From NCBI GenBank assembly GCA_018713435.1, contig DVOS01000057.1, positions 2,450 to 66,449 of the forward strand: a stretch of 64,000 nucleotides of DNA. Reading direction: 5' to 3'. How positions within the stretch are numbered: the stretch's first letter is position 1; the number at the start of each line of letters is the position of its first letter. Of this stretch, positions 1-6,439 are shown one piece after another. Under the pieces are notes generated by a model. The model did not search any database and had not been told where the DNA came from. It saw only the letters and a list, made by a program, of their open reading frames with translations. This DNA comes from Candidatus Merdiplasma excrementigallinarum (GTDB lineage Bacteria; Bacillota; Clostridia; Lachnospirales; Lachnospiraceae). The position numbers were made by a program, and so were the translations under genes.

Positions 1-231
1 ATCCACAATGGCAAAATCATCGTTCAGCAGCATATTTCCCGCTCCGCCGTCTGTATTTACCAGCACAGTATCCCCGATCCCCGCATCCGCGCAGTCGAAA
101 GCAATCATACGGGGGCCCTGGGGGACGCCGCTTTCCGGGTCAAAATATTCTACCAGCATCAGCTTGTAGCCATAATATCCCCTCTCTTTTACTGTGGAAA
201 CCACATTGCCTACTACTCTCGCCAGCCGCAT
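1..231 (-). CDS. BMC vertex (pentamer) shell protein, EutN/CcmL/PduN family; partial, C-terminus runs off the window edge
   Basis: Not in the ORF track. My own translation from the ATG at 231 gives MRLARVVGNVVSTVKERGYYGYKLMLVEYFDPESGVPQGPRMIAFDCADAGIGDTVLVNTDGGAGNMLLNDDFAIVD, 77 codons open to position 1. The MxxARVVGxVVST start is typical of EutN/CcmL. AGGAGG lies about 9 nt upstream. Confidence 0.8.
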   Translation of the reverse strand, partial: MRLARVVGNVVSTVKERGYYGYKLMLVEYFDPESGVPQGPRMIAFDCADAGIGDTVLVNTDGGAGNMLLNDDFAIVD

Positions 232-254: not shown

Positions 255-521
255 TTACAGTTCTTCGTGGTAAGTATCAATAAATCCCACAATCGCCACA
301 TCCACCGGAATCCGTTTTACCCTGAAAATGCGGGCGGCCTCCTTGGAACCGATCATGTAGACAAAATCCCCCATTCCTGCCTGGCGGGTCTGGTCTGCCG
401 CAACGATAAGTCCGGCTTCCTTTCCATTCTCCATTTTGCGCACCACCAGCAGAGGAATTCCCTCCAGAGCCGAATCCTTTACCGTAGCCACCACAGATCC
501 GGCTACCACACCGGTGTACAT
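255..521 (-). CDS. BMC vertex (pentamer) shell protein, EutN/CcmL family (second paralog)
   Basis: 88 aa. MYTGVVAGSVVATVKD start, EutN-like length and pattern. Only 3 nt from the upstream BMC-H gene. Confidence 0.88.
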   Translation of the reverse strand: MYTGVVAGSVVATVKDSALEGIPLLVVRKMENGKEAGLIVAADQTRQAGMGDFVYMIGSKEAARIFRVKRIPVDVAIVGFIDTYHEEL

Positions 522-524
522 GGT

Positions 525-815
525 TTACTCCTCTTCTTTGCGGTCCAGGGTGGGCAAAATATACTCTACATCCGCATGGGGACGGGGAATCACATGAACT
601 CCGTAGAGTTCCCCTACCCGTTTTGCAGCTGCAGCGCCTGCGTCCACTGCGGACTTTACAGCGCCCACATCGCCCCGCACCATCACAGTCACCAGTCCGG
701 AACCAATCTGCACTTTGCCGATCAGGCTTACATTAGCCGCCTTTACCATGGCATCCGCTGCCTCAATAGAACCGATCAGTCCACGTGTTTCAATCATTCC
801 CAATGCTTCTTTCAT
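525..815 (-). CDS. BMC-H hexameric shell protein (PduA/EutM/PduJ-like, single Pfam00936-type domain)
   Basis: 96 aa. Canonical [31 protein letters not shown]...[13 protein letters not shown]...HVIPRPH. Confidence 0.93.
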
Positions 816-869: not shown

Positions 870-1415
870 CTATCCGATAGCCCGCAGCATATCCGGGTGA
901 GGGGAGGGAATCACAGCGCTTTTGGCCATCAGTCCCTTTGTCTCCTCCAGCGCTTCCGCCGCCTGGATGGAGGACTGTACAGCCGCTACTTCTCCAGTCA
1001 GCAGGATAAAGGATTTTCCTCCCAGTCCCCGGCCAAGCCGCACCTCCAAAAGCGTTACCTCCGCCGCCTTCGCCGCCGCGTCCGCTCCATGGACAGCGGC
1101 GCACAGAGAATAGGTTTCCATAATGCCCAGGGCATTCAGGTGTTCCACCATGGTACAGGCGGAAATGGCAGGCGCTACCTGCGGATCCACATTGGGGATC
1201 ACCAGACTGTCGATCAGCAGGCTTCCCGCCGCTTCTCTGCCCGCCTCCACAGACGCCTGGACAGCCGCCACTTCCCCGGATACCACAATGTAGTATTTCC
1301 CGGCGCAGATGCAGCCGGCACTGATAAGTTCTACCTCCGCCGCCTTCAGCATGGCGTCGCAGGCCAGCATTCCCGTGGGAATGCTCATAATTTCATTCAT
1401 TCCAATGGCTCCCAT
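870..1415 (-). CDS. BMC-T tandem-domain shell protein, PduT-like (candidate Fe-S pore)
   Basis: 181 aa with two BMC-like repeats (GMNEIMSIPTGMLACDAMLKAA... and GIMETYSLCAAVHGADAAAKAA...). The CICAGKYY segment aligns, from memory, with PduT TICPGKF, which carries the cluster-ligating Cys. Confidence 0.82.
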   Translation of the reverse strand: MGAIGMNEIMSIPTGMLACDAMLKAAEVELISAGCICAGKYYIVVSGEVAAVQASVEAGREAAGSLLIDSLVIPNVDPQVAPAISACTMVEHLNALGIMETYSLCAAVHGADAAAKAAEVTLLEVRLGRGLGGKSFILLTGEVAAVQSSIQAAEALEETKGLMAKSAVIPSPHPDMLRAIG

Positions 1416-2723: not shown

Positions 2724-4130
2724 TTAAATAATCCGGAAGCCGTCAGCCAGGACGCATCGGCGGGCTCTGGTAAAACTCCGGGCCGAGGTAAGTCCCTCGC
2801 CTGTGGGTGTGGCGATGGTCAGCGTAGCGTATCCTTCTCCCTGGAATCCCACCCCGGCGGTAGAGGGGGCGTTTTTCACAAAGATAGTGGTGTTCAAAGC
2901 TCTGGCCGCTTTTGTCATGCTCAGATAATTGGTGGAATGCATCAGAGCGGAATGCCAGCATCCATGCTCTGCCTCCACTGCCCATTCTATGGCCTGATCC
3001 ACATGTTCGCACCGCACGCACCCCAGCACCGGCATCAGCATCTCTACCGTTACAAAGGGATGATTTTTGCATACCTCCGCTATCACCAGCCTGGGTTTTC
3101 CCGAATAGGACACCCCTGCCGCATCCATGATATAAGTGGCGTCATGGCCCACAAATTTCCGGTTAATCACATATTTTCCGTCTTTTTGCAGCAGAACGGT
3201 GCGGACTATCTTCTTGGCGTCCTCCTCATTGACCAGCCACGCGCCGTTTTTCTGCATCTCGGCAAGGAGCCTGTCAAAGACCGTGTTTACGCAGAAACAT
3301 TCCTTTTCTGCCACGCAGAGCACGTTGTTGTCAAAGGAGGCCCCGTCCACAATATCTTTTCCGGCCTTCGGAATATCCGCTGTCTCATCCACAATCACCG
3401 GCGGATTCCCCGGCCCCGCGGCGATACATTTCTTTCCTGTCTTCATCGCCACACTTACCACGGCTTCTCCGCCTGTCACACTCAGCAGCTTTACCTTCGG
3501 ATGGTTCATAATAACCGCGCTGGTATCCAGGCTGGGGTTTGCCGGACAGCAGATCAGCCCCATGGGGCCTCCTGCCGCCGCAATCGCCTCATTTAAAATC
3601 CGCATGGCTTCCTGGGAACATTTTACCGCTGCCGGATGGGGATTAAATACCACCGCGTTTCCGGCGGCGATCATGCTGATCGAATTGTTGATCACCGTTC
3701 CCGGCGGGTTGGTAGAGGGCGTGATGGAACCGATTACCCCAAAAGGCGCCTGTTCCACCAGCGTCATTCCCTTATCGCCTGTAAATACCCGGGGTACAAT
3801 ATCTTCCGTACCCGGTGTCTTATTTGCCACCAGCAGAATTTTCGCGATTTTATCCGGCACATTTCCGTATCCGGTCTCCTCATGGGCCATCTGGGCCAGT
3901 TTCTTCGCATTGTCCCTGGCTGCCTGACGCATGGCAGCGATCAGGCTTTCCCTCTGCTCCATGGTCATGGCCACCAGCTTTTTCTGCGCTTTTTGGGCTG
4001 CCTCAATACAGTCCTCCGCCCGCTCAAACATCCAGCCGTTTCCCCCGGCCTGATTCTCCGCCGGGCAGTTTTTGTTCAGCTGTGCCAGCGTCATCTGGAC
4101 AATCTGTTCAATCTGCTCTTTTGAAAGCAT
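2724..4130 (-). CDS. CoA-acylating aldehyde dehydrogenase (PduP/EutE family) with N-terminal encapsulation-type helix
   Basis: 468 aa. Catalytic-Cys context FDNNVLCVAEKE. N-terminal amphipathic SKEQIEQIVQMTLAQL followed by a linker, as in PduP/EutE targeting peptides. Confidence 0.9.
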   Translation of the reverse strand: MLSKEQIEQIVQMTLAQLNKNCPAENQAGGNGWMFERAEDCIEAAQKAQKKLVAMTMEQRESLIAAMRQAARDNAKKLAQMAHEETGYGNVPDKIAKILLVANKTPGTEDIVPRVFTGDKGMTLVEQAPFGVIGSITPSTNPPGTVINNSISMIAAGNAVVFNPHPAAVKCSQEAMRILNEAIAAAGGPMGLICCPANPSLDTSAVIMNHPKVKLLSVTGGEAVVSVAMKTGKKCIAAGPGNPPVIVDETADIPKAGKDIVDGASFDNNVLCVAEKECFCVNTVFDRLLAEMQKNGAWLVNEEDAKKIVRTVLLQKDGKYVINRKFVGHDATYIMDAAGVSYSGKPRLVIAEVCKNHPFVTVEMLMPVLGCVRCEHVDQAIEWAVEAEHGCWHSALMHSTNYLSMTKAARALNTTIFVKNAPSTAGVGFQGEGYATLTIATPTGEGLTSARSFTRARRCVLADGFRII

Positions 4131-4447
4131 CAGTCTATCACCTTCTTACTGTCTTTTTCTTTGCTGAATATCCGTCTGTTATGCAGGTCAATATAATCAA
4201 TAATGGCAATAATGGCTGTATCCGACGGTTTATTTTCTGTTACCTCTGTCTGTCTCGAGGAAGAACCGGAGACAATCATCACCACCTCGCCCTCACCTGC
4301 TCCTACCGCGTCAAAAGCTACCAGTATATTGCCTTTTTCCTCGAATGTCTCCAGATCAATCGGCTTTACCAGCATCATTTTCAGCCCGGTCAGTTTCTCA
4401 GATTTGGTGGTACTGACCACCGTTCCCACTACCCGCGCGATCTGCAT
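4130..4447 (-). CDS. BMC vertex (pentamer) shell protein, EutN/CcmL family (third paralog, with a short basic C-terminal tail)
   Basis: 105 aa. MQIARVVGTVVSTTKSEKL start. Overlaps the pduL 3' end by 19 nt and abuts the aldehyde dehydrogenase start. Confidence 0.9.
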   Translation of the reverse strand: MQIARVVGTVVSTTKSEKLTGLKMMLVKPIDLETFEEKGNILVAFDAVGAGEGEVVMIVSGSSSRQTEVTENKPSDTAIIAIIDYIDLHNRRIFSKEKDSKKVID

Positions 4448-5532
4448 GTCTCTCCTCCTTCTGTCCGGACGATCCGAATGCCGCTGGCCGCCGCCCGCTC
4501 TCTGGCCGCTTCCGTGACCAGAGCCCGGCTGCTTCCAAACACCGTTTCCCGGTTGTCCCGGTACGCGTCATTAATATCCCGCTCTGTAATCAGATCCAGC
4601 ACGGTTTCTCCCGGGTTCGGCAGGGCCTCCGGCCGTTTCTTTTTTCCCGGGGTCCGCTCAATCCGAATGCCCAGCTCACCGGCCCGGTCCCTGGCCAGAG
4701 GCGTAATCAGCGCCTCTTTTTCACAAAACAGTTTCTTTCTGCGGCCCAGGAACGCCTCGTTCACTTCCCTCTCCGTTACCAGCTCCCATACCGGCTCTTC
4801 TTCCCGCTCCTCTGCCGTACAGGAACCTTCATTCCCTGTTTCTTCGGCCTGCTTCGGCTTTTCTGCCCGGGACGGGGCAGCGCCGGACACGCCCGGCCCG
4901 TCAGGCAGCACTTCCAGCAGCTGCTCGTTGGACAGGCAGCATCCGTTGGCCTCATCTGTGTCTATATGAAATTCCAGTTCATGTTTTTCCCCGGTCCTGC
5001 ATACCACATCATTTAAAATACAGGGCCTTGGTCCGTCTACTTTCAGACTGATAATCTGTCCGTCATGGATTCCGTAGGCCATAGCCTGCTCCCTGCTCAG
5101 GTGCAGATGGCGCCGGGCCACTATTACGCCGTGATCCAGGTCGATCTGCCCCCGGGGGCCAATCACCCTGATTCCCGGCGTCCCGGCCGTATCTCCCGAC
5201 ATTCGTACCGGGCAGTTTCGGATACCCAGCGCGAAGGAATCGGTCAGGGAAATTTCCACCTGGGTTTCAGCTCTTACCGGTCCGATAATTCTGACCTTCT
5301 CAATTCTTCCTCTCGGGCCTTCCAGAATCAGCTGTTCTTTTGTAGCGAACTGTCCCGGCTGCACCAGCTTTTTCAAAGGCGTCAGTTCATAGCCGGGTCC
5401 GAACAGAATCTCCAGATCTCTGGCACACAGATGCAGATGCCGGGCCGAGATAGCCGCCGGCACATACCGGATACCGGAGCGGGCCAGTTGGGTCAGCACA
5501 ATACGCCGCACTTTTTTTTCATCAGCTGCCAA
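4429..5532 (-). CDS. pduL: Phosphate acyltransferase PduL with an approx 160-aa C-terminal extension carrying two tandem modules
   Basis: 367 aa. The two PduL half-domains each have an RHLHL motif (ISARHLHL, VARRHLHL). N-terminal amphipathic KKVRRIVLTQLARS. The extension is described in findings. Confidence 0.9.
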   Translation of the reverse strand: MAADEKKVRRIVLTQLARSGIRYVPAAISARHLHLCARDLEILFGPGYELTPLKKLVQPGQFATKEQLILEGPRGRIEKVRIIGPVRAETQVEISLTDSFALGIRNCPVRMSGDTAGTPGIRVIGPRGQIDLDHGVIVARRHLHLSREQAMAYGIHDGQIISLKVDGPRPCILNDVVCRTGEKHELEFHIDTDEANGCCLSNEQLLEVLPDGPGVSGAAPSRAEKPKQAEETGNEGSCTAEEREEEPVWELVTEREVNEAFLGRRKKLFCEKEALITPLARDRAGELGIRIERTPGKKKRPEALPNPGETVLDLITERDINDAYRDNRETVFGSSRALVTEAARERAAASGIRIVRTEGGETCRSRG

Positions 5533-5563: not shown

Positions 5564-6439
5564 TTATATTCCCCGTGAGGCAAGCACCCGGCGGACAATC
5601 TCTGTGATCATCTGCACTTCCTCTTCCTCACTCATACTGCTATCTGCCTGACTGCCGGAAGATGCGCAGGAATTCCTGCATTTTGCTTCCCCGTTTGCGT
5701 TTTTCCCACAGGACGCGCAGGCCTCCGTTCCTTCCTGTCCGCAGTCTCTGCACTGGGGCCGTCCTCCGGTGGTAATGCCGTCCCTGGTTCTCCGCTCGAT
5801 CAGTCTGTCCACCTGATCGCAGGTCAGCTCCTGCACCTGCCCGATCAGTCCGTGGGTATACATACTCACCAGTGCATAATATTCAATAGATTCCATGCGC
5901 ATCCAGGCTGTCATGGCATCCCCTGCCCATGCAAGGGCGCCATGGTTGGCCAGCAGGCAGCCATTATGGGTTTTCACAAAAGGCGCAACGGAATCCGGTA
6001 CCTCTTCTGTTCCCGGCATGGCATAAGGCGCCAGCGGAATTTCCCCGATGCCCATTACGGATTCTGTGAGAATCGCCCGGTTCAGCGGCAGCCCGGCAAT
6101 GGCGTAGGATGTGGCTGCAGGCGGATGGGCATGAACCACTGCCTTTATGGCCGGGTTTTCTTTATATACACGCAGGTGCATTTTCATCTCGCTGGATGGC
6201 TTGCAGGTGCCCCGGATCACATTTCCGTTCGTGTCCATAAGCACCAGCATCTCGTCTGTCATAAAGCCTTTGGACACTCCGGTAGGCGTGCACCACAGCG
6301 TATGGTCGCTGACCTTGCAGCTGATATTTCCGTCGTTGGATGCCACAAAATTTTTCGCGTACATCCGTCGTCCGATTTCAAGGATCAGCTGCTTTGCCTC
6401 AAAATCAGACGGATAATCCTGGTTTAATCTATAATCCAT
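5564..6439 (-). CDS. Class II (metal-dependent) aldolase/adducin-family enzyme (FucA/RhaD/Ald2/DrdA-like) with Cys-rich linker and C-terminal encapsulation-type helix
   Basis: 291 aa. Metal ligands conserved in the expected places (SSEMKMH, VVHAHP, LANHG). C-terminal EEEEVQMITEIVRRVLASRGI amphipathic helix. First gene of the BMC operon. Confidence 0.88.
   Translation of the reverse strand: MDYRLNQDYPSDFEAKQLILEIGRRMYAKNFVASNDGNISCKVSDHTLWCTPTGVSKGFMTDEMLVLMDTNGNVIRGTCKPSSEMKMHLRVYKENPAIKAVVHAHPPAATSYAIAGLPLNRAILTESVMGIGEIPLAPYAMPGTEEVPDSVAPFVKTHNGCLLANHGALAWAGDAMTAWMRMESIEYYALVSMYTHGLIGQVQELTCDQVDRLIERRTRDGITTGGRPQCRDCGQEGTEACASCGKNANGEAKCRNSCASSGSQADSSMSEEEEVQMITEIVRRVLASRGI

Follow-up and report, generated by a model that had tools for sequence, protein, structure and literature searches.

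How the cargo enzymes of a metabolosome are joined to its protein shell is a central question for these bacterial microcompartments (BMCs), and the answers given so far look system-specific, among them EutQ, PduM, the N-terminus of PduB, CcmN and CsoS2. The question arises again in a BMC locus of Candidatus Merdiplasma excrementigallinarum (Lachnospiraceae; assembly GCA_018713435.1, contig DVOS01000057.1, positions 2,450 to 66,449), here analysed as a window of 64,000 nucleotides (nt), in which the protein PduL, a predicted phosphate acyltransferase, continues far beyond its catalytic core. What is this C-terminal extension, and what does it do? It is a tandem pair of a widespread microcompartment module, the best-studied copy of which is the shell-binding end of EutQ. 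By analogy and structural modelling, it is probably a tether that holds PduL, and through PduL the cargo core, at the shell.

All positions given for the PduL gene are window coordinates, and the gene lies on the minus strand (4429..5532). It is an uninterrupted open reading frame of 367 amino acids (aa) with a TTG start, and the N-terminus that begins there aligns with the MAxDEK... N-termini of homologues. A preliminary description of the window had read it as a PduL core with a C-terminal extension of about 160 aa, in which an acidic, low-complexity linker leads to two modules that align with each other, and had suggested a targeting-type helix at the N-terminus; each of these elements was borne out. 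PF06130 (PTAC) matches residues 27-200 (4933..5454; profile positions 3-175/176, E 5e-70, 235 bits against a cut-off of 25) and NF011652 (phosphate propanoyltransferase) matches residues 24-208 (243.8 bits against a cut-off of 209), both over the full length of the family and above the curated cut-offs. His 32, 34, 142, 144, 184 and 189 are invariant in an alignment of 16 PduL sequences. Ahead of the core, residues 5-18 (5479..5520; KKVRRIVLTQLARS) are modelled by AlphaFold2 as an amphipathic helix (predicted local distance difference test score, pLDDT, 78-95) in which V12, L13, T14 and A17 are invariant in the same alignment; this predicted and conserved helix has the character of an encapsulation peptide, a terminal amphipathic helix of 15-20 aa. 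About 163 residues lie beyond the core (205-367; 4432..4920). They begin with the acidic low-complexity linker (205-247; 4792..4920), predicted to be disordered (pLDDT < 50 at 212-244) and highly variable in length and sequence among the aligned homologues. Module 1 (248-295; 4648..4791; 81 bits with a hidden Markov model, HMM, of the module) is followed by a Pro/Lys-rich spacer of low pLDDT in both structural models described below (296-309; 4606..4647), module 2 (310-357; 4462..4605; 87 bits) and a C-terminal tail (358-367; 4432..4461; pLDDT < 50) that overlaps the start of the next gene. In many PduL homologues the core and module 1 are separated by a Cys-rich linker stretch (C-x-G-T-C ... 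G-C-T-C-G-K; L007:9402-9602, L008:9857-10030), which the PduL of the window lacks; a comparable multi-Cys stretch stands ahead of the C-terminal amphipathic helix of the class II aldolase in the window (5660..5764). Such Cys stretches in cargo linkers could be metal or disulfide sites.

The two modules (46-48 aa) align without gaps, with 24 of 51 positions identical (47%; BLASTP E 7e-12). Both copies fit the signature by which we define the module, L-x-T-E-x-D-V ... I-I-T-P-x-A-x-D-x-A-x-x-x-G-I-x-I, about 45 aa long and located at a protein terminus in a BMC locus. A full-length AlphaFold2 model, built on a 16-row alignment (mean pLDDT 76), contains the N-terminal helix, the PduL core, the disordered stretch at 212-244 and two separate small units, both with the same strand-helix-hairpin-helix-strand order at a pLDDT of ~80-90. 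In module 1 the strands fall at 248-252, 267-276 and 290-294 and the helices at 254-262 and 278-287. A model of the extension alone, a check that the preliminary description had named, agrees with the full-length one, giving two small alpha/beta units that lack confident mutual packing (predicted template modelling score 0.37). The module is predicted to be a beta-alpha-beta-beta-alpha-beta unit, and so more than two helices. Pfam holds no model for it and returned only chance-level matches on the extension (E3_binding at E 0.06, MKRN1_C and others); a PDB sequence search with the module profile gave nothing below E 0.5, and Foldseek searches of the PDB gave nothing at E <= 1e-3. In a wide VIA-align search the best Z was 5.3 (FdhD, 49 residues, root-mean-square deviation 2.8), inside the noise range stated for the tool, and no fold was assigned. 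Subdomains of IF2/eIF5B and N-terminal domains of Cas1 were rejected as fold relatives at Z 4-5, also within that range. ESM Atlas scores were all below 0.8, and a PF15953 (PduM-family) cluster at 0.77 was not counted as evidence.

Is the fusion of core and modules a stable feature of this protein? A homologue search restricted to PduL residues 205-367, with proteins clustered at 90% identity, recovered 16 clusters, all with PF06130, 293-463 aa long and carrying one or two modules. The same locus, gene for gene, is present in contigs of four independent Lachnospiraceae metagenome-assembled genomes (MAGs), two with two modules and two with one. Its conserved genes encode a binding protein, an ABC ATPase, a permease, an MtnK-like kinase, an MtnA-like isomerase, a divergent DeoR regulator, a class II aldolase, PduL with its extension, EutN, an aldehyde dehydrogenase, a PduS-like protein, BMC-T, BMC-H, two further EutN proteins and a 172-aa protein. 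Identity between the neighbouring proteins of the window and those of the four MAGs is mostly 78-100%, the aldolase and DeoR being 64-68% identical in the two one-module MAGs; for PduL it is 58-77% in the core and ~55% in the extension. PduL is the fastest-evolving protein of the locus, with BMC-H, EutN, the aldehyde dehydrogenase, the ABC components and the isomerase 82-100% identical. This conservation marks the extension as a true, inherited component of the protein.

Further afield, two genomes of another family of the same order encode a one-module PduL of 296 aa followed by EutN, EutN and aldehyde dehydrogenase. In the one of these two that was examined further, a sister locus (G052:C19:9000-28900) shares the backbone of DeoR, PduL with a module, EutN, EutN, aldehyde dehydrogenase, PduS and BMC-T, and its sugar branch comprises a DeoC aldolase, a PfkB kinase and DUF4432 in place of the class II aldolase, MtnK-like kinase and MtnA-like isomerase. 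Since module-bearing PduL occurs in both class II-aldolase and DeoC loci, the fusion evidently tracks the shared shell and core backbone of sugar-aldolase microcompartments, not one aldolase type. The survey of homologues that the preliminary description had called for found the extension recurring in aldolase loci and gave no support for a tie to a particular aldolase. The fusion is nevertheless rare: PduL is present in 124 of 401 sampled genomes of the order, where most of the PduL open frames listed are ~180-260 aa long, and a module-bearing PduL was detected in 3 of an equal number of sampled genomes. The early remark that such a PduL would be unusual agrees with these counts.

If the fusion is rare, where else does the module occur? 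Against the extension, the EutQ acetate kinase model NF012001 aligned over profile positions 4-50 (E 1e-3, 17-18 bits, cut-off 193) and TIGR02536 over positions 162-203/207 (12-15 bits, cut-off 152.6), only part of that protein. The PduM models TIGR04493 and NF011957 aligned over their last 27-30 positions at E 0.09-0.2, below cut-offs of 50 and 179 bits. A module profile (A2) was then built from nine modules of PduL genes only and searched against 1.84 billion representative proteins, returning 270 proteins at E <= 1e-3, of which 14 reached E <= 1e-10 (library-wide E-values). Among the best 147 of the 270 were 63 proteins that are TIGR02536-like in part, with the module C-terminal, ten EutQ with the module at residues 3-46, nine PduL, four PduM-like proteins and three RpiB with the module N-terminal. 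RpiB is an enzyme family typical of SPU loci. In single tests the HMM matched E. coli K-12 EutQ residues 2-45 (HMM positions 3-45, 17.2 bits, single-test E 1.9e-7), Listeria TIGR02536 residues 148-187, residues 191-229 of the 'flavoprotein' of a Rahnella GRM locus (L027:4573-5268) and residues 3-46 of Listeria EutT (L029:1652-2407). Canonical TIGR02536 members match the PduL profile weakly. PduL cores and EutN reference proteins gave no match. All carriers that could be named by family or locus are microcompartment-associated. One giant protein of 4632 aa gave 16 short matches, to profile positions 13-33 only, and was omitted from all analyses; its stretches are probably an unrelated repeat.

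The likeness to the EutQ N-terminus that the preliminary description had proposed was therefore recovered by a profile search, the check it had itself named, and in the ten EutQ retrieved as in E. coli EutQ the matching part is the N-terminal segment with helices H1/H2. By residue position in the E. coli match, the PduL modules would correspond to H1/H2 only. A counterpart of H3/H4 (residues 62-99) is absent, as the alignment with the EutQ model ends at about position 50 and each module precedes a short disordered spacer or the protein end, and the cupin of EutQ (PF06249), the acetate kinase part, has no match in PduL at E <= 10. The module is evidently not specific to EutQ: TIGR02536-like proteins are its commonest carriers, and PduM, RpiB, EutT and the GRM 'flavoprotein' carry it too. 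Its place at the N-terminus of EutT and RpiB and at the C-terminus of the 'flavoprotein' suggests a general microcompartment tag. TIGR04493 (PduM) was not found in 301 sampled genomes of the order or 401 of the phylum, the phylum sample containing C-terminal partial matches to PduM in two genomes; the PduM reference comes from a plasmid of C. freundii. Free-standing two-module proteins were sought with a word-indexed search, which yielded a single 90-aa fragment. When the source assembly (2.07 Mb, 73% complete) was scanned in all six frames, PduL proved to be its only carrier of the module, and no EutQ-type hit and no match to TIGR02536 or PduM appeared.

Gene order points to where the extension may have come from. 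The order PduL, TIGR02536, EutN holds in all 12 TIGR02536 loci examined; the annotated order in Listeria is EutT, EutD, TIGR02536, EutN, that in C. freundii is PduL, PduM, EutN, and that in Rahnella is pduL, 'flavoprotein', EutN. In each such locus the middle protein ends in the module (a half-module in C. freundii PduM), and the pentamer gene follows directly. In the window that gene (EutN/BMC-P; 4130..4447, minus strand; PF03319, E 6.7e-29) starts with an ATG that sits 19 nt inside the PduL reading frame, which itself ends in a module. The separate middle gene is thus missing here, and its module appears to be fused to PduL through the disordered linker. The simplest reading, one that we infer from these comparisons, would be that pduL fused with the downstream linker gene, that the N-terminal domain of that gene was lost, and that the module was duplicated in one lineage. 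Because module-1 copies from different genomes are closer to each other than to module-2 copies, and because one-module relatives retain a degenerate stretch at the place of module 1, the comparison suggests that the duplication is old and that decay followed in certain lines.

What the module does is best known from EutQ. In Salmonella, EutQ residues 1-99 are sufficient to target GFP to the organelle, and after deletion of residues 9-41 (H1/H2) EutQ stays with the cargo and off the shell, while EutC and EutE are bound through their encapsulation peptides by residues 62-99 (H3/H4) (PMC12487888). EutQ binds EutM and EutL in pull-downs and by microscale thermophoresis (PMC12487888), and the EutQ-EutM pull-down needs the first 100 residues of EutQ (PMC4827028). 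EutQ of Gram-positive bacteria lacks the first helices (PMC12487888); in Firmicutes loci of this kind, as in Listeria, it is TIGR02536 and EutT that carry the module. PduM, in turn, helps to join shell and cargo in the Pdu organelle (PMC9132943).

Can a PduL module bind a shell protein? Complex prediction was run for module 2 with three copies of the only BMC-H of the locus (525..815, minus strand; PF00936, E 8e-29; 94-100% identical in the four related MAGs), with our own alignments and three controls. The complex scored 0.67 against 0.00 for the best control, a result that supports binding at the level of a model. In the calibration of the tool, the same mark was attained by 58 of the 80 solved complexes and by 2 of the 110 mismatched pairs, counts that are approximate here because our own alignments and three copies were used. 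The prediction runs agree in >= 97% of contacts, with a partner pLDDT of >= 90. The PDB search turned up no solved homologue of the module for the model to have memorised. All contacts are with a single BMC-H copy, at residues 51, 54-55, 57-58, 61-62, 65, 70 and 72-75, of which 54-65 form the helix-2 'AxxDAGAAAA' surface, the counterpart of PduA 'AATDAGAAAA'. In PduA, the A63R substitution, at the counterpart of A62 in this BMC-H, abolishes binding of the PduL encapsulation peptide, and this face is taken as luminal (PMC11157265). On the module side the contacts lie at positions 4-5, 7-9, 29, 31-34 and 36, the LxTE and ITPxAxD signatures, and include L5, T7, E8, T31, 32, A34 and 36, which are 7 of the 12 most conserved positions among 153 module instances (Mann-Whitney p 0.002 for conservation of the contact site, a value biased by the selection of the instances by profile). 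Position 32 is Pro and position 36 Asp in most modules; the folded module 2 has Glu at both.

On the reading that we favour, the N-terminal amphipathic helix would bring PduL into the cargo core alongside aldolase and aldehyde dehydrogenase, and the two modules would attach to helix 2 of the BMC-H tiles, on their luminal face. Because PduL is the only module-bearing protein found in the genome, and given the roles proposed for helix and modules, it would be the protein that holds cargo to shell, which would also place acyl-phosphate production and coenzyme A (CoA) recycling beside the shell. An amphipathic helix is also found at the C-terminus of the aldolase, preceded by a Cys-rich linker, and at the N-terminus of the aldehyde dehydrogenase, so that all three cargo enzymes have peptide-type signals and PduL alone among them has modules. 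What the analysis establishes is that the modules are homologous, that the fusion is conserved and that gene order is shared; shell binding and the linker role are inferred. The proposal that the extension is a shell-docking or scaffolding module, first made in the preliminary description, has accordingly gained EutQ-type homology and a supporting complex prediction, and has been revised in that the module is not peculiar to EutQ, is predicted to be a beta-alpha-beta-beta-alpha-beta unit and comes free of H3/H4 and the cupin.

Several points weigh against tethering through BMC-H. The case for shell binding in PduL consists of analogy and one in-silico test. The conservation of the interface residues is partly circular, as the matches were chosen by profile similarity. 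The prediction was made on an incomplete hexamer, and the published exposure of helix 2 is the one indication that the contact site would be accessible once the ring is closed. In C. freundii PduM, residues 132-156 match the second half of the module only, and weakly with the profile built from PduL alone (E 1.5e-3). The source assembly is 73% complete, so a further linker protein could be unassembled. For EutQ itself, binding was proposed at the interface of EutM/EutL tiles, not on one protomer (PMC12487888), and in Salmonella that lacks PduB residues 1-37, PduM stays with the cargo and not the shell (PMC9132943), so that the true partner of the module, or of the protein carrying it, may not be BMC-H.

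This behaviour of PduM speaks for a second account, in which the modules bind encapsulation peptides, other cargo enzymes or each other. Two modules per chain would then crosslink the core off the shell, in the manner of the CcmM or CsoS2 repeats, should PduL be oligomeric as published. The amphipathic end helices of all three cargo enzymes could be the ligands. Carboxysome scaffolds typically string tandem repeats along flexible linkers. We nonetheless consider such a cargo-side scaffold unlikely: the peptide-binding part of EutQ is H3/H4 (62-99), which the PduL extension lacks, EutQ comes off the shell when the module-equivalent part is lost, and the BMC-H complex prediction passed its controls.

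Tethering of PduL to BMC-H must also be set against docking on another shell protein, either the BMC-T trimer or the BMC-P pentamer, whose gene comes next after pduL. In PDU/GRM and EUT2 loci, as in the window, the pentamer gene directly follows a gene that ends in a module, PduM is reportedly scarcer than PduN, and loss of PduM gives misshapen shells (PMC9132943). A 2026 atlas contains a predicted complex of Listeria EutL and TIGR02536 (PMC13181095), and EutL is required for shell-cargo association (PMC12487888). Gene order by itself, however, is weak evidence for binding, BMC-T types vary among module loci whereas BMC-H and BMC-P are common to all, and the complex prediction, in which BMC-H was the only partner, supported BMC-H; docking on BMC-P or BMC-T is on balance improbable.

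A small alpha/beta unit could also hold a ligand, and the module sits on several different enzymes (PduL, RpiB, EutT and EutQ), but a purely regulatory domain that tunes PduL activity by sensing CoA, phosphate or nucleotide, with no structural role, is highly improbable given that the module is also on PduM (treated as structural in PMC9132943) and on TIGR02536 proteins, which have no assigned function, that it is always terminal and in this PduL stands behind a disordered linker, that all nameable carriers are microcompartment-associated, and that the PDB sequence, Foldseek and VIA-align searches gave no likeness to a known ligand-binding fold. Finally, an artefact in which a separate downstream gene was joined to pduL by a sequencing or assembly frameshift, an alternative that the preliminary description had itself raised, has a virtually negligible chance and was rejected: related locus types do have a separate module-bearing gene at this position, but the fusion is uninterrupted in the 16 protein clusters and in at least six independent assemblies, and the linker has no stop codon in any assembly and no space for the ribosome-binding site or start codon of a second gene.

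Tethering by PduL may be one instance of something broader. One family of docking domains might underlie the linkers of EUT1 (EutQ H1/H2), EUT2 (TIGR02536 and EutT), PDU/GRM (PduM and the GRM 'flavoprotein') and SPU (RpiB) compartments and of this aldolase compartment, binding BMC-H helix 2 from the lumen, with the PduL fusion as the minimal natural linker, made of encapsulation helix, enzyme and two docking domains and arisen from pduL and a downstream gene of PduM/TIGR02536 type. We put this forward tentatively, as a reading with a little less than an even chance. The comparisons do suggest that several shell-cargo linkers share one small mobile domain that evolution can shift onto an enzyme.

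Other genes of the locus complete the picture of its shell. Three EutN/BMC-P genes (1..231, 255..521 and 4130..4447) accompany the single BMC-H and one PduT-like BMC-T (870..1415), the leftmost EutN being clipped by the edge of the window and whole as L001:2390-2680. To the left of the window, after the last EutN, lies the gene of the 172-aa protein (L001:1839-2357, minus strand; G000:C27:1839-2357), which is 57-63% identical in the four MAG loci and has no Pfam match and no module match.

If binding to BMC-H holds true, it would explain what the TIGR02536 proteins and the C-terminus of PduM do, and it would account for Gram-positive EutQ without N-terminal helices, because other proteins in those loci carry the module. 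It would also provide a folded targeting tag for microcompartment engineering, distinct from the amphipathic peptides in use. The indication of a common docking domain behind seemingly unrelated linkers is what should interest microcompartment specialists.

How, then, does this PduL compare with known systems? EutQ of the Salmonella and E. coli EUT1 loci contains the same ~45-aa module (residues ~2-45; LxT(E)xD(V/I)...IITPxARxxAxxxG(I/F)xI), likewise at a protein terminus with a flexible stretch adjoining, and in EutQ it is needed experimentally for attachment to the shell. EutQ has one N-terminal copy, followed by the peptide-binding H3/H4 and a cupin acetate-kinase domain, whereas this PduL has two C-terminal copies and neither H3/H4 nor cupin. 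TIGR02536 'eut_hyp' of the Firmicutes EUT2 loci has its module at the extreme C-terminus, and its gene lies between pduL/eutD and eutN, the place taken here by the PduL extension; it differs in being a separate protein of ~190-260 aa with a single module and an N-terminal domain of its own (~150 aa) that is absent from PduL. PduM of the PDU and GRM loci occupies the same gene slot, from pduL to the pentamer gene, has a published role in joining shell and cargo (PMC9132943), and resembles the second half of the module in its C-terminal 25-45 residues; unlike the extension it is free-standing, ~160 aa long, and in C. freundii has a detectable half-module only. Classical encapsulation peptides (PduP, PduD, PduL and EutC) are likewise terminal targeting elements on flexible linkers, and the module is predicted to contact BMC-H at a surface shared in part with their proposed groove, in its helix-2 half. 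An encapsulation peptide is a single helix of 15-20 aa, in contrast to a module predicted to fold into strands and two helices over ~45 aa, and the PduL described here appears to have both.

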